IMG/VR virus record: IMGVR_UViG_2718218136_000008 | Location: 1 to 48,802 of that record | Direction: 5' to 3' (one strand) | Source of the DNA: a virus | Lineage: Duplodnaviria > Heunggongvirae > Uroviricota > Caudoviricetes | DNA length: 48,802 nucleotides | The notes under the pieces: generated by a model | Database searches by the model: none | Told to the model about the DNA's origin: nothing | Seen by the model: the letters and a program-made list of their open reading frames with translations, nothing else | Program-made: the position numbers and the translations under genes | In this document: positions 5,309 through 42,032 of the stretch, piece by piece | Position numbering within the stretch: the stretch's first letter is position 1 | Layout of the letters: the number at the start of each line of letters is the position of its first letter

Positions 5309-5893
5309 TTACTCCATAACAGGGACCGCAGGCCACTCAATATCAGGTGCAGTTGATGTATCAACACGGTTCAGCAACACCCGATACTTCTTCCAGGCTT
5401 CCAGCAACGAGTTTTCTTCCTCCGTTGCGATCTCCAGATCTACAGCATCCTGAAGTGGCGCTATATGCTCACTGGCTACCTGCATCAGGCTGTTTTTTGT
5501 TTCTTCCGCCTCCCGGATCCGGAACAGTTTTTCTGCTTCCGTATCCTTCACCCAGGCTGTGCCGTTCCACTTCTGAAACTCCCCTTCCGGGGATAACCAG
5601 GTAACATTTTCCGGTAACGGACCGAGTTCAGAAATAAATAACGCGTCCCCTGACGCTACGTCATAAACCGTTTTACCCCGATGGTCTTCAACGAGATGCC
5701 ACGATGCCTCATCACTGTTGAAAACAGCCACAAAGCCAGCCGGAATATCTGGCGGTGCAATATAGGTACTGTTTGCTGGCAGACCTGTATGAGGCGGAAT
5801 ATATGCGTCACCTTCACCAATAAATTCATTAGTTCCGGTCAGCAGATTATAAATTTTTATGGTCCGTGGTTGTTCACTCATTCTGAATGCCAT
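5309..5893 (-). CDS. tfa: tail fiber assembly protein
   Basis: 194-aa [21 protein letters not shown]..., closely matches recalled lambda Tfa; TAATG overlap with stf stop. Confidence 0.9.
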
Positions 5894-8800
5894 TATGCAA
5901 GCCTCACAATATAGTTAAATGCGATGTTTTTGACGGTGTTTTCCGCGTTACCCGCAGCGTTAACGGTGATGGTATGTCCATGTGAACCAATCGCAACGGA
6001 GTGCGTATGAGCACCAATACCGACAGTATGCGCGTGTGCACCTGCAGATGCTGCTGTGCCGGACAGTGAGTGGCTATGATTACCATCTGTACTGGTATTC
6101 GCTAACCACCCCGTAGACATACCTACTGAGCCTTGTACACCCCAGGTATTTTGACCTGAGCTTGTATAACCATATTGATAAGTATCTTTAAAAACACTGG
6201 GGTTAAATCGACGGCCATCTCTATGGCTGTGATTACCAGCTGCATTCGTGCTGCCACTTAAACTATGGGTATGCGCACCAGTGTTATTCGTGGATTTAGT
6301 GCCGTAATCAAACGACGATGTGGTTTTCGTCCCCAAATCAGTACTGGATGCGCTGGCGCTGTGGGTATGCGATTTTATGCCGTCCTGTTCCTGAGACAAT
6401 ACGGCACGACCACTGGCGGGCTTGCCCTTAATCGTCCAGCCACGCATATCAGGGATCACGCCTGACGGATAAGCGGCTGCAAGTTTCGGGTAGGCAGATT
6501 TGTCAAAAGTCTGCCCCTGCATCAGGGCATAACCAGACGGAACGGTATCTGATGGCCACGGGATTGGTGCGCCGACTGGGTAGCTTTCTGGTGGAAGATT
6601 TTTCGAGGTATAAACTTCTGCCCAGTCTTCCTCAAAACCATAACCGTCTCTTGAAGAACGGTAGAACAGACCACCATTTCTGTAATGCGCCTTCATCTGC
6701 AAGGTCCGGCAACTTCCGACTCCGGTATAGAAGTTAACCAGAATATAGCTGTCGCCAGAGCGGGTGACATTATAAGCGCCTGATTCGGCATTCCAGGGAA
6801 CGCCACCATCCGCATCGGCATATGTATCCGTTGCCCTTCTGGCAAAAGCAGCCACATGCGCGGCGGTTAAAGTAATATCTTTGGAACCATCAAACTCAAC
6901 ACCAGAAACCCGTCTTGGCGTTTGCAGCTTTGTTGCTGTTAATGCATTACCGTTCAGACTTGCGGACAGTTTGGTTCCAATAACCAGTTCGCCGGTTGCG
7001 TTATCAATAGCAAACGGTCTTAATGTATTCCATCCACCATAAACATCACCTTGATTGGTAAGCAGCAGGTAAGTTTTAGCGCCATCATTACGCCATAATG
7101 CCCCATACTCCCCACCTATCATTCGAATCTGATTACCACCACGCGCTACAATTTCGTCTGTGGCAAAAAGTTTTTTGCACGACAAGTTATCGTTAACGAT
7201 TAACGAATGAGACTCATAAAAACCACGCCCACTCTTAAAATCAAGGATAACGTCCGCCGCGATACATTCAGTCGCTGGATTTGTTGCCCCAAACTTATAG
7301 GTCGTATCATTAACAACGAGATCAGCACCAGGTGCGGATATTGACAGGCCATCTTCGATAAACGCAAAAACAGGGAAAGCAGCGCCATCAACATAGAACA
7401 CAGAGCGCAAATCATCGCCCTTATTACTCATCATTATTGAGTGGATGGCTCGTTCATTGTTTTGATATTGCCAGAACATTCCATAAGCATAACGCCCCCT
7501 GTCAGTCCAGCCACCAGGCATAACAAATCCGTTAAACTCGCAGTTATTCATCGGATCGCCTGCGGTTCGCGTTGCCGTGGTGATAATGACCCTTGATGCC
7601 AGTTCGCTTACTGAGCCAGCAGAACGCATAACAACAACAGGGTAATATTTTCCAGATGTTGCACCTGCAGGAGCGTTAACCCGCACATAACGCATACCAC
7701 GCTTATCAGCAAAGTCTGTTTTACTGACCGCGTTAATGTTGTTCAGGAAGCGTCCCTTATCGGGTATATCAGCGCCGTTCTGGTCTTTCTGCAGACGTTT
7801 CTCTGCATTGTCATAGGCTGATTTTACTGCCTTTGGCGTTGCCGCCAGCGTTTCAGACGTACTGTTGGTCGCACTGCTGAGCTGTACTATCCCCTTTTTC
7901 GTCGTACTTGCATCCTCAAGCGCCACGGCGGATGCAATATCCTCTGCCCGTTTTGCCGCTGTCTCGGCGCGCGTTGCCGCGGATTCCGCCGTACTTTTGC
8001 TCTGTGCTGCCGCCGTCGCACTGCCAGCTGCCTCTGTCGCCTTCGTGGATGCTGTCGTGGCGCTGCCCTTCGCTGCGGACGCTTGTCTGGTCGCCTCATC
8101 TTTTGAAGCAGACGCCGATGATGCCGATGACGCCGCCGAACTGGCGGACGATGCGGCAGCCGTTTTTGAGGATTCTGCGCTGGTTTCCGACGCTTTCGCG
8201 TTCGTCTCGGATGTCTTCGCTGCGGAAGCAGACCTTGCTGCTGCGCTGGCCTGTTCAGTGGCTTCGCCAGCCTTCGTTGTGGCTGTTGAAGCAGACGATG
8301 CGGCACTTTCTGCCGATTTTCCGGCGGCGGTGGCACTGGCTGAGGCCTGCCCGGCACTTGTTGACGCGGCACTGGCAGACGACGCAGCCGCTGTTTTTGA
8401 GCCTGCCGCAGCCGAGGCGCTCTGTCCCGCTGCCGTTTCAGAAGACCTGGCGTTTGTCTCAGACGTCTTTGCCGCCTTCGCGGAATTGCCTGCCGCCGTT
8501 GCCGAGGAAGCGGCACTACTGGCGCTTGATGATGCGTTCGTTTCTGATGATTTCGCTGCCTCTTTTGAGGCCGCCGCATCCCGGGCTGAGGTGGCTGCTT
8601 CTGACGCCTTCGTGGTCGCGGCGGATGCAGAAGTGGCTGCTGATTGTTGTGACGCTGCCGCATTCGTTTCTGACGTTTTCGCCGCACCGGCACTGGTAGC
8701 TGCCGCGCTTTTTGAGGACTCTGCAGCAGCAGCACTTTTCGATGCTTCACTGGCCTTTGTTGATGCCGTTCCTGCGCTGGAAGATGCTGACTGAGCCGAC

Positions 8801-37903: not shown

Positions 37904-38541
37904 GCGTTAGTTTCTCCACAACCAGAAGCAATCGACGCCACGACGCCCGGAGCTGCACACTCGCGGGCGTTACTCTTTTCCGGCGCACAAAAAACACGAA
38001 ATAACAGTGTTAAATGCTCCTGCCACTTCGCCATTACTTGGTAGCTGTTCTCTTCGATTTGCTCACGCTCAGCTTGGTCAATAACTCCATCAGCAGTTGC
38101 CTTGCGTAAGTACTGGGAATGCTTGCCAATCCATTCTATTGACTCCATCAGCCGCTGATTAATGTCACCATTGTCAATGTCATCAATGACCACCAGCGGC
38201 ACAAACACCCCATTACTACGACGGGCTATTGCATCCGTTACATGCCTGGTACCACTGGCATCCTGTAAAACCATGGCCCACTCAAGTGGAAAAATTTGAT
38301 CCCCACCGCTACGCAGTCTGTTATGCAATTGATCTTTTGCTGGGGTGATATCATCAGATTTATACAAACCAAGAATTTCTGCTGCTTCCTCATAGCCATG
38401 AGGTAAATCAGCAATCGTTCTTCGTATTGCTGCCACCAGCCATGCTGGTTGCTTATCAACTTTCCATTCAGGTTCTTTACCCACGTTTAAGCCCTCATAT
38501 CTGTGGTTTCTGTAAATCGATTTATCCATTAGATTTTTCAT
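37900..38541 (-). CDS. CII-like regulatory protein (possibly phage 186 CII/CP76 family)
   Basis: ~213 aa from ATG 38541; segment [23 protein letters not shown] resembles recalled CII-family pattern; immediately after cro. Confidence 0.5.
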
Positions 38542-38722
38542 AAAGCTCAGGTTTAAATGGCAACCGTCCGCAAGTTCTATATGCAGCCTCTGCTGCACGT
38601 CCTTTTGGAATTAACTGGCCAGGACGGTTTCGCCACTGATAAACGGCTTCAGTTGTTATGCCGAAAAAAGCAGCAACTTTCTCAATGCTGCCGAAGTAGC
38701 TTTCGATATCGTCAGTCGTCAT
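38522..38722 (-). CDS. cro: Cro-like HTH repressor
   Basis: 66-aa ORF with HTH (KVAAFFGITTEAVYQWRNR), divergent from cI across an operator region. Confidence 0.75.
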   Translation of the reverse strand: MTTDDIESYFGSIEKVAAFFGITTEAVYQWRNRPGQLIPKGRAAEAAYRTCGRLPFKPELYEKSNG

Positions 38723-38819: not shown

Positions 38820-39446
38820 ATGGAAACGGTTGGTCAGCGTATAAAAGCTCTGAGAAGAGTTACCAGAACGTCCCAGAAAGAATTGGGTAAATTTTGTGGA
38901 GTAAGTGACGTTGCTGTGGGGTACTGGGAGAAAGACATCAATGTCCCTGGTGGGGAAGCACTTTCAAAATTAGCGAAGTTCTTCAATACGTCAATAGATT
39001 ACATTCTTTATGGTGCGGAGTTTGAAGGCAAACTCGTCACAAACATGCGCAGAGTTCCTGTAATCTCGTGGGTTCAGGCTGGGCAGTTTACTGAGTGCAG
39101 GACAGCAGAAGTGTTTAGTGAAGTAGACAAGTGGGTAGATACATCATTAAAGATTGGTGATAACTCATTTGCATTGGAGGTTAAAGGCGACTCCATGACT
39201 AACCCTAACGGCCTCCCAACAATACCAGAAGGCGCAACAGTGATTGTAGATCCTGATGCAGAACCCCGGCATGGAAAAATAGTCATCGCTAGACTTGATG
39301 GAACAAACGAAGCCACAGTAAAAAAATTAGTTATCGATGGCCCTCAAAAGTTTTTAGTGCCATTAAATCCCCGGTACCCCAACATCCCGATCAATGGTAA
39401 TTGCCTCATCATTGGTGTAGTCAAAGGAGTTCAATACGAACTCTAG
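38820..39446 (+). CDS. cI: CI-type repressor (HTH plus S24 LexA-like autopeptidase)
   Basis: 208-aa ORF; N-terminal HTH (QKELGKFCGVSDVAVGYWEKD), C-terminal GDSM…K peptidase motif. Confidence 0.9.
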   Translation: METVGQRIKALRRVTRTSQKELGKFCGVSDVAVGYWEKDINVPGGEALSKLAKFFNTSIDYILYGAEFEGKLVTNMRRVPVISWVQAGQFTECRTAEVFSEVDKWVDTSLKIGDNSFALEVKGDSMTNPNGLPTIPEGATVIVDPDAEPRHGKIVIARLDGTNEATVKKLVIDGPQKFLVPLNPRYPNIPINGNCLIIGVVKGVQYEL

Positions 39447-39469
39447 CCCCCCTTTTCTCTAACCAAAAC

Positions 39470-39530
39470 ACCGAACTAAGAAAAGTTTGGTGTTTTCTCT
39501 TGCCATCAAAACTAAGTTAAGTTAGATTTT
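39470..39530. promoter_or_regulatory. candidate OL-like operator region downstream of cI
   Basis: CTAAG half-sites at 39476..39480 and 39512..39525 (CTAA-GTTAAG-TTAG); inverted repeat AAAACACCGAACT/AGTTTGGTGTTTT. Confidence 0.3.
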
Positions 39531-39680
39531 ATATCAAAGATAACGAACAGGCAGGACGCCCACGAAGTAGCCGCCTGGGGCATATGAAGTCCAGGATGAT
39601 TCGTTAGCAACAAAAAAAGCGCCCTATAGGACGCTTCGCTCTTTAACAATCCTGGTATCCCCGTAACAAAAGAGGGTTCT

Positions 39681-39974
39681 ATGGTCATATTCTGTGCTTA
39701 CGTTCATCCTAATGGATTTTTTATCAGCACCAACCAACAAGACGAATTCTGGATTCTACTTAGTAAGCAGATCGGATGGGGACGATTCTGTCTAATCCGA
39801 CCAGAATCAGAATTTACAGAGAATGGAGGGCTTTTTGAATTACGTGAAATACGTCCGGCAGATGGTCAAGCCCCTGACCAAGTAATCGAATCGTCAGCTG
39901 TTTTATGGCGTCGGCAGGAAGCGTTCGAAGCTGAGAAAGTAATTTCTTCTTATCTTCAGTCGTGGCAGAAGTAG
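39681..39974 (+). CDS. hypothetical protein (uncertain; overlaps convergent 167-aa ORF)
   Basis: 97-aa ORF with AGAGGG RBS; no arginine-rich N-like motif. Confidence 0.25.
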   Translation: MVIFCAYVHPNGFFISTNQQDEFWILLSKQIGWGRFCLIRPESEFTENGGLFELREIRPADGQAPDQVIESSAVLWRRQEAFEAEKVISSYLQSWQK

Positions 39975-40317
39975 AACTATTGATGATACGTTCAAGTTCA
40001 CAGAGAGTCTCATCATGCAATCTTATTGTCATAATCCCAAGAATAGCTTTAAGACCTCCATCATCACGAATGAAATCAATTCCATCTTTAGTAATTCTTA
40101 ATTCAGGAATATTTATATTTATGCCATCCAAGTAATAATCAAGAGCATTCTTAATCAAGCCATGTTCTTCGAGATAAATTAAGTTCGAAATTAGGACATT
40201 ATCATCTCCAAATGCGTCACGAACAGACTGCAACGCATCATCAGAAATTTCATAAGGATGAGCATCATACAGTATTTGTAACAACTGCCTTTGTGCACTT
40301 CTATCAAATTTGTCCAT
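39814..40317 (-). CDS. hypothetical low-GC accessory protein in the immunity region
   Basis: 167-aa ORF; low GC relative to flanks; opposite orientation to cI and early-left genes; no recognised motif. Confidence 0.45.
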   Translation of the reverse strand: MDKFDRSAQRQLLQILYDAHPYEISDDALQSVRDAFGDDNVLISNLIYLEEHGLIKNALDYYLDGININIPELRITKDGIDFIRDDGGLKAILGIMTIRLHDETLCELERIINSSTSATTEDKKKLLSQLRTLPADAIKQLTIRLLGQGLDHLPDVFHVIQKALHSL

Positions 40318-40595
40318 CTTAAATAATCACCATGTTATTGGGGGTATCAAGATTAACCGAATCCTTGTTGTTGGGGAATAACCAGGTCCACCTCGCCTGA
40401 TGTGGCTAAAAGCAGGCACATAACAGCTAAGTATTTTCAACCAGAGAGAATCCTTAGCGTTGTGGTGAATGCGGCTCAGCGCACGCGGGTTAAGGTTGAG
40501 GCTGACAGTCGACCTTCTGTGGATACCCACCCGCCTGGTGTGCAACCTTCGCCAGGCACCGGGAGGCACCCGGCACCACAACAGCCACTGCTTTG

Positions 40596-40641
40596 GCGGT
40601 ACCAGTTTGTACACTTGCTTCCGGCTGGTACCGCTCTTTTT
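40596..40641 (+). terminator. intrinsic terminator upstream of the yfdP-like gene
   Basis: Perfect 10-bp inverted repeat GCGGTACCAG/CTGGTACCGC with 19-nt loop followed by TCTTTTT. Confidence 0.5.
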
Positions 40642-40730
40642 ACAAAACAGAGAAGAGCATCACCGGACGACGGGCTCATAACCCAATCCATCCGGGCGGC
40701 TGCCACCGCAGGTGTTCTTCTCTGTTTTGT
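40642..40730. repeat. 15-bp perfect inverted repeat with 59-nt GC-rich loop
   Basis: ACAAAACAGAGAAGA (40642..40656) and TCTTCTCTGTTTTGT (40716..40730). Confidence 0.5.
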
Positions 40731-40778
40731 GGAGAAACCAACCGACCTTGCAGGGTCGATATGATGAGGAGCAGCAAA

Positions 40779-41141
40779 ATGGCTAGCGAACGCAGTACTG
40801 ATGTGCAGGCATTTATCGGGGAGCTGGACGGCGGCGTATTTGAAACCAAAATCGGCGCAGTTCTCAGTGAAGTCGCTTCCGGTGTGATGAACACGAAAAC
40901 CAAAGGTAAGGTCTCGCTCAACCTGGAAATCGAACCGTTTGATGAGAACCGTGTGAAAATCAAACACAAACTCTCATATGTTCGCCCGACTAACCGCGGG
41001 AAAATTTCCGAAGAAGACACCACCGAAACGCCGATGTATGTCAATCGCGGTGGTCGCCTGACTATTCTGCAGGAAGACCAGGGACAATTACTGACTCTTG
41101 CCGGTGAACCTGACGGAAAACTCCGCGCAGCAGGTCGTTAA
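40779..41141 (+). CDS. yfdP: YfdP-like prophage protein
   Basis: 120 aa from ATG 40779 (MASERSTDVQAF...), GAGGAG RBS; size and order match recalled KpLE1 yfdP-T cluster. Confidence 0.7.
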   Translation: MASERSTDVQAFIGELDGGVFETKIGAVLSEVASGVMNTKTKGKVSLNLEIEPFDENRVKIKHKLSYVRPTNRGKISEEDTTETPMYVNRGGRLTILQEDQGQLLTLAGEPDGKLRAAGR

Positions 41142-41207
41142 TATCGTTTTTAATAAACTAATTATTCATCTTATCACTGAATATCTTTAATATAGTGAGG
41201 ACTTATT

Positions 41208-42032
41208 ATGTCTCAGAACTTAGACGCAACCGCAATTAATCAAATCCATGCCCTTATTTCTGCTCAGGGTGTTAATGAAATTATCAGTAAGATTGGTGCC
41301 GATGCTGTGGCATTGCCTGAGAATTTCCGCATTCATGATCTGGAAAAATTTAATTTAAATCGCTTCCGTTTCCGTGGTGCACTTTCCACTGCCAGCATCG
41401 ATGACTTTACCCGTTATTCTAAAGATCTTGCAGATGAAGGCACCCGCTGCTTTATCGATGCCGATAATATGCGAGCCGTCAGTGTGCTTAACCTGGGTAC
41501 TATTGGTGAACCAGGTCACGCAGATAACACCGCCACACTCAAACTGAAAAAGACAGCACCGTTCTCTGCTCTGTTGTCTGTTAATGGCGAGCGTAACTCC
41601 CAGAAGTCACTGGCAGAATGGATTGAAGACTGGGCCGACTACCTTGTGGGCTTTGATGCTAATGGTGACGCTATTCAGGCAACAAAAGCGGCTGCGGCGG
41701 TCCGTAAAATCACGATTGAAGCAAACCAGACCGCTGATTTTGAAGATAATGACTTCAGCGGCAAACGCTCCCTGATGGAGTCTGTCGAAGCGAAGACCAA
41801 AGACATTATGCCAGTAGCATTTGAGTTTAAATGCGTTCCGTTTGAAGGTCTGAAAGAACGTCCATTTAAATTACGCCTCAGCATTATCACTGGCGATCGT
41901 CCTGTACTGGTTCTGCGCATTATTCAGCTGGAAGCAGTGCAGGAAGAAATGGCTAACGAATTTCGTGATCTGCTTGTTGAGAAATTCAAAGACAGCAAAG
42001 TAGAAACCTTTATTGGTACTTTCACCGCCTGA
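41208..42032 (+). CDS. yfdQ: YfdQ-like prophage protein (DUF2303-like)
   Basis: 274-aa ORF, same length and order as recalled yfdQ. Confidence 0.75.

Follow-up and report, generated by a model that had tools for sequence, protein, structure and literature searches.

We found that the GC-rich region directly upstream of yfdP in this virus is built of four sense-strand RNA modules (A–D) and forms the leader of a repressor-controlled early-left operon. The explanation that we favor, at a probability of about 60%, is that of a non-coding, structured pL-operon leader in which module A and the terminator T1 (module B) yield a small RNA (sRNA) by attenuation, and in which modules C and D serve as cis elements on the read-through mRNA. 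Judged by its sequence, module A is a divergent relative of the STnc100/PasD small RNAs. The present analysis established the anatomy and strand of the modules, their conservation and covariation, the pseudoknot of module A and its family relationship.

Organization of the leader

Positions refer to the window, by which we mean the whole 48.8-kb stretch of DNA that was analyzed. The modules and the signals next to them are as follows:

40388–40417, plus strand: upstream box, conserved; CCACC-UC-GCCUG-AU-GUGG-CUAAAAG-CAGGC, whose two helices are interleaved
40459–40582, plus strand: module A, STnc100/PasD-class pseudoknotted RNA domain
40583–40594, plus strand: linker AGCCACUGCUUU between module A and T1, unpaired in the minimum free energy (MFE) fold
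40595–40641, plus strand: module B, predicted intrinsic terminator T1; 13-bp stem (40595–40607 / 40623–40635) and UCUUUUU tail
40642–40730, plus strand: module C, conserved three-way-junction RNA, from its fold, covariation and a covariance model
40743–40758, plus strand: module D, small GC-rich hairpin CGACCU-UGCA-GGGUCG seen in the fold, between module C and the ribosome-binding site
40766–40771 and 40779–40781, plus strand: yfdP Shine-Dalgarno sequence GAGGAG and start codon ATG, from the sequence and the RefSeq annotation of an identical locus

An earlier note on this DNA had singled out positions 40330–40778 as GC-rich, and the GC content is indeed 0.57–0.60 over 40400–40699 versus 0.32–0.45 in the flanks. 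The yfdP Shine-Dalgarno sequence lies near the 3′ end of that interval, just 3′ of the inverted repeat as the note had it, and the ATG directly follows the interval. Its proposed extent holds except for the 5′ 58 nt: positions 40330–40387 fall outside the element and belong to the promoter region of a minus-strand moron, with a promoter-like site at 40350–40323. In BLAST comparisons, the similarity to many phages begins only at about 40388. The upstream box sits at these joints, where the conserved leader begins 3′ of the moron insertion. It is identical in Cronobacter phage phiES15 and is retained by loci that have no module A (L133, L149). The box is a possible small H-type pseudoknot, and since its stems are invariant, its helices offer no covariation test.

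The position in an early-left operon, also part of the earlier proposal, is borne out by OR/OL operator repeats and a pL-like promoter at 39474–39528, after a cI-like gene, and by a leader start homologous to that of phage ST64B. In phiES15 a homologous module precedes kil, and in ST64B it precedes sb37. We detected no sigma-70 promoter for module A or yfdP itself on the plus strand of 40330–40778, and the TATGAT at 40760 has no usable -35 element. Module D homologues keep the place and a GCAG-containing loop with a different stem sequence (UGGCGGUGGCAACCCGCCA in ST64B, GGCGGUGGCAGCCGCC elsewhere). At least 80% of the whole region is carried by approximately 1600 E. coli genomes. The prophage also occurs in NCTC86 and AR_0085 at 99.8–100% identity, and Stx2c phages of O157 strains have the part 40566–40790 in common with it. 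The element has been lost from CPS-53 of K-12 MG1655, which has only the last 31 nt before yfdP in common, and K-12 transcriptomics is therefore uninformative for the leader.

Module A is a divergent STnc100/PasD-class domain with a pseudoknot

The Rfam/covariance search that the earlier note had called for recovered the STnc100 family (RF02076) over module A. The match is full-length (model positions 1–206) and scores 36.0 bits, below the gathering score of 47 bits, with E = 1.6e-5 in a 3-kb search and 2.6e-4 over the whole window. Other Rfam families at E <= 5 within 39000–42000 were limited to chance-level Phe_leader and ftsZ-DE matches. The helices assigned to module A are these:

40459–40467 / 40574–40582, plus strand: P1, stable 9-bp closing helix, supported by covariation
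about 40471–40486, plus strand: H1, whose register is approximate because the MAFFT alignment is inconsistent here
40492–40498 with 40543–40549, plus strand: pseudoknot, AAGGUUG with the H4 loop CAACCUU, from complementarity
40533–40540 / 40550–40557, plus strand: H4
40559–40573, plus strand: H5, supported by covariation

A further helix may pair CGGG at 40486–40489 with CCCG at 40530–40533; MAFFT aligns the inner helices inconsistently.

The family relationship is also seen in the primary sequence. Both STnc100 sequence blocks, GGUGAAU after the closing helix and CACCGGGAGGCACCCGGCACCA, are present, and so are all the elements of the STnc100 secondary structure (closing helix, H1, H4, H5 and a 3′ terminator). 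The second block is an exact 22-mer on the 3′ side of module A (40557–40578; chance expectation 0) that is common to at least 120 viral contigs, most of which carry bona fide STnc100 at 54–132 bits. The pseudoknot is supported family-wide by many different complementary pairs: complementarity between the two segments scores 211 for the sequences' own partners versus 147 ± 6.4 for permuted ones, and 0 of 2000 permutations were as high. In phiES15 the pair AAGGUUG/CAACCUU has become AAGGCUG/CAGCCUU, a compensatory change. Apart from the pseudoknot, P1 and H5 likewise carry compensatory substitutions.

PasD1 and PasD2 of enteropathogenic E. coli (EPEC) resemble module A in the closing helix, GGUGAAU, first hairpin, H4/H5, linker and intrinsic terminator, and PasD1 has the pseudoknot in common, with the H4 loop pairing to the segment 3′ of H1. 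Both PasD RNAs are prophage-encoded, Northern-verified and Hfq-associated sRNAs, and PasD stability depends on Hfq (PMC8550237); one STnc100 copy of EDL933 is likewise a Northern-verified, Hfq-associated sRNA (PMC5331693). STnc100/PasD RNAs and module A also have in common their location in prophage operon leaders. They differ in the first hairpin (GCGGCUCAGCGCACGCGG in module A, CCCCCUGUGCGGAGGGG in STnc100), in the central insert and in the operon, as module A lies in the early-left leader and STnc100 in the late (Q to lysis) leader. Moreover, the RNA of the canonical STnc100 locus L007, in a late-operon leader, begins at P1 from a consensus promoter, whereas module A has no detected promoter of its own.

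Module A belongs to a subtype that scores 33–41 bits in ST64B, phiES15, P1 and the dicF–dicB spacer of Qin, and that is missed by the Rfam threshold in all four. Subtype members in the dicF–dicB spacer, the P1 tciA leader and Enterobacter have no terminator and end approximately 30 nt before the start codon, so the structured domain may function apart from being an sRNA body. No second copy was found in the early-right operon by the Rfam E-value scan or by a search of the window for the 22-mer with 3 mismatches.

The linker and the terminator T1

T1 is predicted to be an intrinsic (Rho-independent) terminator, a stable GC-rich hairpin followed by a U-tract, in agreement with the terminator reported earlier. 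It folds at -21.2 kcal/mol (z = -4.3), a stability matched by 0 of 200 shuffles. The 15-nt loop is atypically large for an intrinsic terminator, and a simple terminator scanner missed T1 because its loop exceeds 8 nt. The stem sequence differs among relatives yet pairing is maintained, as in ST64B (GUCGGCGUC/GACGCCGAC followed by U5) and phiES15, and a U-tract lies directly 5′ of module C in 102 of the 107 distinct upstream contexts. The preceding linker is likely the base-pairing (seed) segment of the putative sRNA, given that RIL-seq placed the PasD1 seed, UGUGAG, in the equivalent linker.

Module C is a three-way junction

The perfect inverted repeat described in the earlier note is present, with two 15-nt arms (ACAAAACAGAGAAGA at 40642–40656 and TCTTCTCTGTTTTGT at 40716–40730) and 59 nt between them; extended to 25 nt, the arms are still 84% complementary. 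All other inverted repeats of such length in the window are A/T-rich palindromes with overlapping arms. The simple hairpin with which the repeat was first equated gives way to a conserved three-way junction, with these parts:

40642–40664 / 40709–40730, plus strand: outer stem, with weak pairs extending to 40638/40734
40665–40697, plus strand: inner arm, containing the anticodon stem-loop-like CGACGGGCUCAUAACCC at 40668–40684
40698–40707, plus strand: third hairpin, variable

The MFE of module C is -49.7 kcal/mol (z = -7.2). RNAalifold assigned it 34 pairs from 17 diverse sequences, 8 of them with compensatory changes, and compensatory substitutions are found in all three helices. In the alignment 97.8% of cells are paired, compared with 34–50% when the partners are slid by 1–3 columns. 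On the plus strand a covariance model reaches 109 bits, compared with 37.5 bits on the minus strand. Module C occurs in at least 120 viral contigs, and no Rfam family matches it. We also considered a Pas sRNA and rejected it: the PasA seed region and the E2348/69 PasB locus do not match module C, and PasC is reported to be a PasA variant.

An RNase III substrate is near-perfect duplex RNA of ~20 bp, roughly two helical turns; the outer stem comprises 20–23 pairs, 15 of them perfect. In Klebsiella phages the stem has only ~6 bp, so the long duplex is not universal. The lambda N leader contains an RNase III-sensitive hairpin, and module C resembles that site in that its long duplex follows the leader signals and precedes the first ribosome-binding site of the pL operon. 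Another precedent is the operator of thrS, a mimic of the tRNA-Thr anticodon arm in a 5′ UTR, with which module C shares an anticodon-arm look-alike in a 5′ UTR. Module C has no sequence relationship to the lambda N-leader hairpin or to the thrS operator, and it is a three-way junction.

Likeness of module C to the initiator-tRNA anticodon arm

The segment CGACGGGCUCAUAACCC is identical to E. coli metY at 16 of 17 positions over CGNCGGGCUCAUAACCC, a score reached by 0 of 3000 shuffles, and its best match among 124 tRNAs predicted in the compared loci is the initiator tRNA. Within it, GGG-CUCAUAA-CCC (40672–40684) has the three G-C pairs, 7-nt loop, U33, CAU and purine 37 of an fMet arm. A tRNA-fMet gene was rejected, as neither ARAGORN nor the Rfam tRNA model detected a cloverleaf; ARAGORN predicted 0 tRNA or tmRNA genes in the window, and Rfam tRNA had no match there.

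Module C, and perhaps module A, could act as a functional mimic of the initiator anticodon stem-loop, read by the 30S P site with IF3, by MetRS or by an anticodon-loop nuclease such as the VapC toxins of Shigella and Salmonella, and so control initiation on the early-left mRNA or serve as a decoy. VapC cleaves tRNA-fMet in the anticodon loop, as Winther and Gerdes reportedly described in 2011. We think such mimicry unlikely, although it can coexist with the leader model that we favor. It draws on the identity to metY and on the arm being the best-conserved part of module C: all variants, among them those of P1 (GGGUUCAUAUCCC, GGGGUCAUAUCCC) and of Klebsiella and Pantoea phages, retain the GGG stem, 7-nt loop and UCAU, and the CCC partner strand is kept except in the Klebsiella and Pantoea copies (UCC). 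The modules also adjoin real tRNA genes in late leaders. However, the match is confined to the loop and the three G-C pairs, with both outer pairs of the anticodon stem mismatched (C-A, A-A), ST64B has a U at position 37, and no tRNA is predicted by ARAGORN. In addition, most homologues were retrieved by a pattern or similarity that included the arm, and the conservation is thus partly ascertainment. We know of no mRNA mimic of initiator tRNA that has been described, and our literature search returned nothing on such a mimic in prophages. Pairing in cis between the CAU loop and the yfdP start was rejected: complements of the AUGA type are short, have no fixed place and occur near most starts.

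A broader and equally doubtful extension is that temperate enterobacterial phages carry modular, tRNA-related structured RNAs in their early-left and late leaders, with module C a dedicated initiator anticodon-arm mimic (for the 30S P site/IF3, MetRS or an anticodon-loop nuclease such as VapC) and the STnc100-type domain functional in its own right and more than a base-pairing sRNA body. The STnc100-type domain is often fused to module C, for example in P1 and Pantoea PA-1. If the idea were true, module C would represent a new class of cis-regulatory or anti-defence RNA.

Antitermination, ligand sensing and DNA-level readings

The earlier note had raised both attenuation and antitermination. 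Attenuation and a small RNA gain support from homology, the part 5′ of the terminator being, by sequence, an RNA of the divergent STnc100/PasD class; antitermination does not. In the latter case module A would be a cis-acting processive antiterminator of the HK022 put or EAR type, a nascent RNA that modifies RNA polymerase to read T1 and later terminators with no N-like protein. HK022 put is ~70 nt long with two stem-loops, is present in one copy downstream of each early promoter, and its read-through depends on the zinc-binding domain of the RNA polymerase beta′ subunit. Like putL and putR, module A is a cis-folded RNA that precedes terminators in the early-operon leader of a lambdoid phage that apparently lacks N. 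Its family is found in early-left (the window, ST64B, phiES15) and late leaders (L007, Stx phages), invariably in sense and mostly immediately 5′ of a terminator; its conserved, elaborate structure exceeds what a typical sRNA body needs; and the ST64B downstream genes are expressed on induction despite two leader terminators. Membership in the put class was nevertheless rejected. Module A is ~125 nt long, multi-helix and pseudoknotted, matches put in neither sequence nor architecture, and is present in a single copy with none in the early-right operon. When the leader was compared by BLAST with the HK022 putL and putR regions (taken from NC_002166), which match each other, the best hit had E = 0.066 over 14 nt on the wrong strand. 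Natural leaders that have no module A (L149, L140) keep T1 and module C, the Qin module lies downstream of the DicF terminator directly before dicB, and abundance falls stepwise along the ST64B operon. Family members also accumulate as terminated, Hfq-bound sRNAs (PMC8550237). Antitermination by module A is, in our judgment, quite improbable.

A lambda nut site (boxA, CGCUCUUA-like, plus boxB) was rejected as well. Two strings resemble boxA, CGCUCUUUUUA within the tail of T1 and UGCUCUU within the 3′ arm of module C, but neither is conserved as such; strings in homologues read GUCCUUUUUA and GACCUUUUUA, and UGCCCUU and UGUUCUU. The UGCUCUU of module C is base-paired.

That module A might be an aptamer sensing a ligand or factor and controlling termination at T1, as in a riboswitch-like attenuator, is a slimmer prospect still. 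The order of pseudoknotted domain, intrinsic terminator and genes is the classic riboswitch layout, and the junction nucleotides GGUGAAU, the GCG of the H1 loop and the H5 loop are invariant. Yet even at E <= 5 there was no hit to a riboswitch family, P1 forms a stable helix of 9 bp, and we saw no alternative pairing in competition with T1. In many members the domain is not followed by a terminator or expression platform, and the linker and T1 are exchanged independently of it, with a recombination joint inside the 3′ strand of P1.

The least credible reading places the function at the DNA or protein level, with the inverted repeat as an operator or recombination site or with a real small gene (for example 40402–40764, plus strand, 120 aa): mechanical ORFs of 70–182 aa are open on both strands, several GenBank phage records annotate a 'hypothetical protein' over the region, and mosaic joints coincide with conserved blocks, but no frame is open across the homologues, their indels are not multiples of three, and RefSeq annotates no gene here. 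The earlier description of the region as ORF-poor is thus to be qualified, though no frame stays open throughout the homologous leaders. Coding potential was rejected; similarity among homologous leaders occurs in several frames at once, none of which is kept open, as expected of conserved non-coding DNA. The protein-binding site suggested earlier is likewise not supported, as the repeat closes an RNA fold that fits the plus strand only: many helix G-U pairs would be A-C on the other strand, the covariance model favors the plus strand, and compensatory substitutions are spread over all three module C helices and, in module A, over P1, H5 and the pseudoknot.

Proposed mechanism and expression in relatives

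The attenuated-leader model runs as follows. Transcription would proceed from left to right on the plus strand from the repressor-controlled early-left (pL) promoter. The leader would contain a gene within it, in which the ~125-nt pseudoknotted module A, the linker and T1 together make up an STnc100/PasD-class sRNA. A stop at T1 would release a discrete, U-tailed RNA of ~185 nt, a type of transcript that Hfq binds and that probably acts in trans via the linker, and T1 would simultaneously attenuate transcription into yfdP–yfdQ–yfdR. Read-through transcripts would carry module C, with its ~20-bp duplex, and hairpin D before the yfdP ribosome-binding site. These two most likely act in cis, as an element for RNase III-type processing, stability or translation of the early-left mRNA. 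We infer sRNA production and Hfq binding from the relatives, and the role of module C from its shape and its position at the site of the RNase III hairpin in the lambda N leader. With no convincing promoter directly 5′ of module A, the 5′ end of the sRNA would need processing, or the RNA would appear only after induction.

Data from ST64B are compatible with partial termination. Induction raises STnc1310, the leader RNA, along with the two genes downstream of it, with abundances that step down from about 2300 to 1200 and 200 TPM (leader RNA, then the two genes). The Salmonella annotation contains only STnc1310, upstream of the homologous module, and no sRNA covering the module itself.

There are precedents in lambda, in which the early-left sRNA LPR1/PreS is made by termination at tL2a (bioRxiv 10.1101/2024.10.31.621285). 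LPR1/PreS, 6S RNA (from tR′) and StxS of Stx phages are all sRNAs derived from a phage operon via an attenuating intrinsic terminator (bioRxiv 10.1101/2024.10.31.621285). The proposed likeness would extend to expression on induction and to Hfq binding. In contrast to our leader, the lambda leader sRNAs have no large pseudoknotted domain, and N or Q antitermination explains the read-through in lambda; we saw no sequence similarity between them and the leader. Our literature search found nothing on a structured dicF–dicB element or on yfdP leader RNAs.

Significance

STnc100/PasD RNAs are among the most abundant prophage RNA families of pathogenic E. coli, and to our knowledge they have no known function. 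The locus reveals a divergent STnc100/PasD subfamily below the Rfam threshold, which is present in the dicF–dicB spacer of Qin in 4632 of 5426 complete E. coli genomes and in the ban operon of phage P1. The STnc100 pseudoknot is absent from the consensus structure printed by Rfam, and we did not find it in published RNAalifold models. As a family-wide feature it changes the design of seed, processing and structure–function experiments on STnc100/PasD RNAs. For annotation, the 'hypothetical proteins' placed over the leader in several GenBank phage records are spurious. Module C is an undescribed, widespread and conserved motif, and its resemblance to the initiator-tRNA anticodon arm provides a concrete hypothesis that can be tested cheaply.

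The early-left leader and its setting

The prophage in the window is lambdoid, of the SfV / ST64B / CPS-53 type, and its region leading to yfdP is arranged as follows.

38522-38722, minus strand: Cro-like gene
38820-39446, plus strand: LexA/cI-like repressor gene
Between these two genes, and again at 39474-39527: palindromic operator repeats ACTAAG...CTTAGT
39500-39528: pL-like promoter TTGCCA-17-TAGATT
39814-40317, minus strand: 167-aa gene with no Pfam match, with its own promoter-like site (40350-40323) and terminator (39637-39616)
40743-40758: hairpin D, small and GC-rich, with a GCAG-containing loop
40779-41141, plus strand: yfdP, followed by yfdQ and yfdR

The operators, the pL-like promoter and the gene layout place early-left transcription on the plus strand towards yfdP, yfdQ and yfdR. 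The 167-aa gene is a moron that separates pL from the conserved leader RNA: it is inserted antisense in the early-left leader, and transcription from pL must therefore cross it head-on. The leader start (39540-39567) is homologous to that of ST64B, and the conserved leader resumes at about 40388, the point at which many phages begin to match. A conserved box at 40388-40417, CCACC-UC-GCCUG-AU-GUGG-CUAAAAG-CAGGC, holds two interleaved complementary pairs and possibly forms a small pseudoknot; Cronobacter phage phiES15 has the identical box, and leaders without module A, the pseudoknotted domain described below, keep it.

RefSeq leaves the stretch from the moron to yfdP without annotation. All features named in an earlier note on this region were recovered at their positions, including its high GC content (0.57-0.60 versus 0.32-0.45 in the flanks) and a terminator, here T1, with a hairpin at 40595-40635 followed by UCUUUUU (-21.2 kcal/mol, z = -4.3). 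Its description of the region as ORF-poor needs qualifying: mechanical ORFs exist, but no frame is open throughout the homologous leaders, whose similarity is spread over several frames simultaneously. Several GenBank records place 'hypothetical protein' CDSs over the homologous leader (mEp460, L124 2498-2641, minus; Ayreon, L125 2439-2633, minus; PhiR49_1, SfIV and others), and these look spurious, since the RNA covaries and no reading frame is conserved.

Elsewhere in the window, Rfam family IS009 matches strongly at 5352-5550 on the minus strand, with 224.6 bits for a cut-off of 117, and the plus strand at 8328-8707 holds two isrG-like matches, both weak and partial (22-23 bits); IS009 and isrG are the two families that the Pas preprint reported around PasB loci. 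C4 antisense RNA and isrK family RNAs occur in the early-right regions of ST64B (L002 409-597), Ayreon (L125 46-122) and mEp460 (L124 1-39), all on the minus strand, and neither family was detected in the window.

Module A is a pseudoknotted STnc100/PasD-class domain

Module A (40459-40582) matches the STnc100 family RF02076 over its full length at 36 bits (E = 1.6e-5), below the gathering score of 47, and this is its only meaningful match in the Rfam search. At least 120 viral contigs of IMG/VR contain an exact copy of the 22-mer CACCGGGAGGCACCCGGCACCA (40557-40578), and most of those sampled carry bona fide STnc100 (54-132 bits), often in tandem and adjoining tRNA genes. An alignment of 32 diverse members gives a common plan of closing helix P1, an invariant GGUGAAU, hairpin H1, a variable insert, hairpins H4 and H5, and the 3' strand of P1. 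Covariation is seen in P1 and H5, where 8 of 14 pairs are changed on both sides, and the observed score was reached in 0 of 500 shuffles.

In nearly every member the H4 loop has its complement in a segment 3-5 nt beyond H1, with a different sequence each time: AAGGUUG/CAACCUU in the window, AAGGCUG/CAGCCUU in phiES15, and AGACUGACAAA/UUUGUCAGUCU, CCAGUC/GACUGG and CUGGUG/CACCGG in other members. Complementarity between own partners sums to 211, versus 147 +/- 6.4 after loops were exchanged at random between members (0 of 2000 permutations as high); this control leaves the relatedness among sequences in place. Since many unrelated complementary pairs occupy a fixed position, a pseudoknot is the natural reading suggested by the sequences across the whole family. 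The printed RF02076 consensus line shows none, and the preprint structures of PasD/STnc100 came from RNAalifold, which is unable to predict pseudoknots.

The module A of the window belongs to a subtype defined by H1 = GCGGCUNAGCGCACGCGG, whose tested members all score 33-41 bits, under the Rfam cut-off. Members occur in ST64B, in Cronobacter phiES15 upstream of kil, in the phage P1 ban operon upstream of tciA, in Enterobacter, and in the Qin prophage between dicF and dicB (L250 2936-3194; 34.5 bits, below threshold). The pseudoknotted Qin copy directly follows DicF and stops about 30 nt short of the dicB start codon; of 5426 complete E. coli genomes, 4632 have it. In mEp460 and Ayreon, different structured cassettes lie between the same P1 strands, and the recombination joint falls inside the P1 3' strand.

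Eleven expressed copies of STnc100 are reported in EDL933, one verified by Northern blot (PMC5331693). PasD1 and PasD2 of EPEC are abundant sRNAs with Hfq-dependent stability and RIL-seq partners (PMC8550237), and a 2026 preprint ties PasD to STnc100 by structure. Like module A, the PasD1 locus has the same pseudoknot, there AAUGAUCG/UGAUCAUU, and the single-stranded linker that joins core and terminator contains the published PasD1 seed, UGUGAG. At the canonical STnc100 locus (L007), the RNA begins precisely at P1, driven by a consensus promoter, TTGACA-17-TAAATT; L007 has the Q-position gene on one side and holin/lysozyme on the other, and its RNA is therefore the late-leader transcript. By analogy, module A, the linker 40583-40594 and T1 should yield an sRNA of about 185 nt. 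In ST64B and phiES15 the structure of T1 is kept and its sequence is not.

Module C is a plus-strand RNA junction

The perfect 15-bp inverted repeat (40642-40656 / 40716-40730) is the sole one of its length in the 48.8 kb besides two A/T-rich overlapping-arm palindromes near 5.1-5.2 kb. It forms the outer stem of a three-way junction, module C (40642-40730; -49.7 kcal/mol, z = -7.2). A pattern search gave 72 distinct variants, and RNAalifold on 17 diverse sequences gave 34 pairs, 8 of them still paired after changes on both sides, with all three helices represented. In the alignment 97.8% of cells are paired, versus 34-50% with partners slid by 1-3 columns. Because G-U pairs are frequent and a covariance model scores 109 bits on the plus strand versus 37.5 on the minus, the sequence evidence identifies module C as a plus-strand RNA and not as a DNA site, such as the protein binding site that the earlier note gave as one option. 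Module C matched no family in the Rfam search. Comparison with PasA and PasB gave no match, and both assignments were rejected.

Of 107 distinct upstream contexts, 102 place a terminator U-tract directly before module C, and about 82 of these 102 also carry a module A cassette closed by P1; module A is wholly absent from some leaders. The module C core also occurs in late leaders of Klebsiella phages, after Q and directly after tRNA genes, and in Pantoea PA-1, as twice in phage P1, it is fused upstream of a module A start, which in PA-1 reads GUUGUGGUGAAU. This core, its CUCAUAA loop included, is seen in Klebsiella/Pantoea phage late-operon leaders (L253 2009-2074, L254 2009-2074, L255 1994-2103). 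The phage P1 ban operon (L123 2148-2627) has two tandem plus-strand units of module C then module A between tRNA-Thr and tciA; two genes annotated on the minus strand, plp and upl, overlap these units. Nearly every variant of module C has a hairpin D behind it, with a GCAG-containing loop and a stem that differs in sequence, ahead of the Shine-Dalgarno of whichever gene is next.

Within module C the best-conserved arm, CGACGGGCUCAUAACCC (40668-40684), lies in a stretch towards which retrieval was partly biased, and is identical at 16 of 17 positions to the E. coli initiator tRNA anticodon stem-loop (real metY sequence as reference; alignment score reached in 0 of 3000 shuffles). Its best match among the 124 predicted tRNAs of the fetched loci is the initiator tRNA. 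The E. coli, Salmonella and P1 variants keep the three initiator-marking G-C pairs and a 7-nt loop with UCAU; in Klebsiella and Pantoea variants one of the three is G-U. The two outer stem pairs are mismatched, and ST64B has U at position 37. We treat this apparent resemblance as a lead, not a finding.

Transcription of the ST64B leader

In Salmonella D23580 the annotated ncRNA STnc1310 lies inside the ST64B leader (L002 ~2874-2947) and ends at a terminator upstream of module A; the ST64B early-left leader thus has two terminators. Shock with peroxide or nitric oxide induces the ST64B prophage and raises STnc1310 and the two genes downstream of it in concert, which shows that induction brings about transcription of the leader from the early-left promoter. 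The step-down from STnc1310 through the two genes (~2300, ~1200 and ~200 TPM) is compatible with partial termination. What these data demonstrate does not include a discrete module A RNA.

A model for the leader

For all of the leader modules, function is what we infer. In the best-supported reading (probability about 0.6), termination at T1 would release a leader-embedded STnc100/PasD-class sRNA and at the same time attenuate the operon, and the read-through mRNA would carry modules C and D as a separate cis-acting 5'-UTR element. The earlier note is partly right: homology supports its options of a small RNA and of attenuation, and its inverted repeat is recast as an RNA junction stem. That module C works as an initiator-tRNA mimic, as the CGACGGGCUCAUAACCC arm might suggest, is compatible with this reading and unlikely. 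Antitermination of the put type is rather less probable, given no similarity to put, a single copy, natural leaders without module A, and copies downstream of terminators. A riboswitch-like attenuator is very improbable: P1 is stable, no competing structure is seen, and some members have no expression platform. Strand asymmetry, covariation and unconserved frames leave hardly any room for a DNA-level site or a coding ORF.

In the preferred reading, a terminated leader sRNA followed by a distinct read-through element, modules C and D would plausibly act as a site of RNase III processing or translation control, which we liken to the lambda N-leader hairpin. Relative to the databases and to the papers we could read, the family-wide pseudoknot is new, as is module C, a second widespread structured motif outside Rfam. 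Equally new is the sub-threshold STnc100/PasD subtype to which the leader belongs, and which also covers the dicF-dicB spacer and the phage P1 ban operon.
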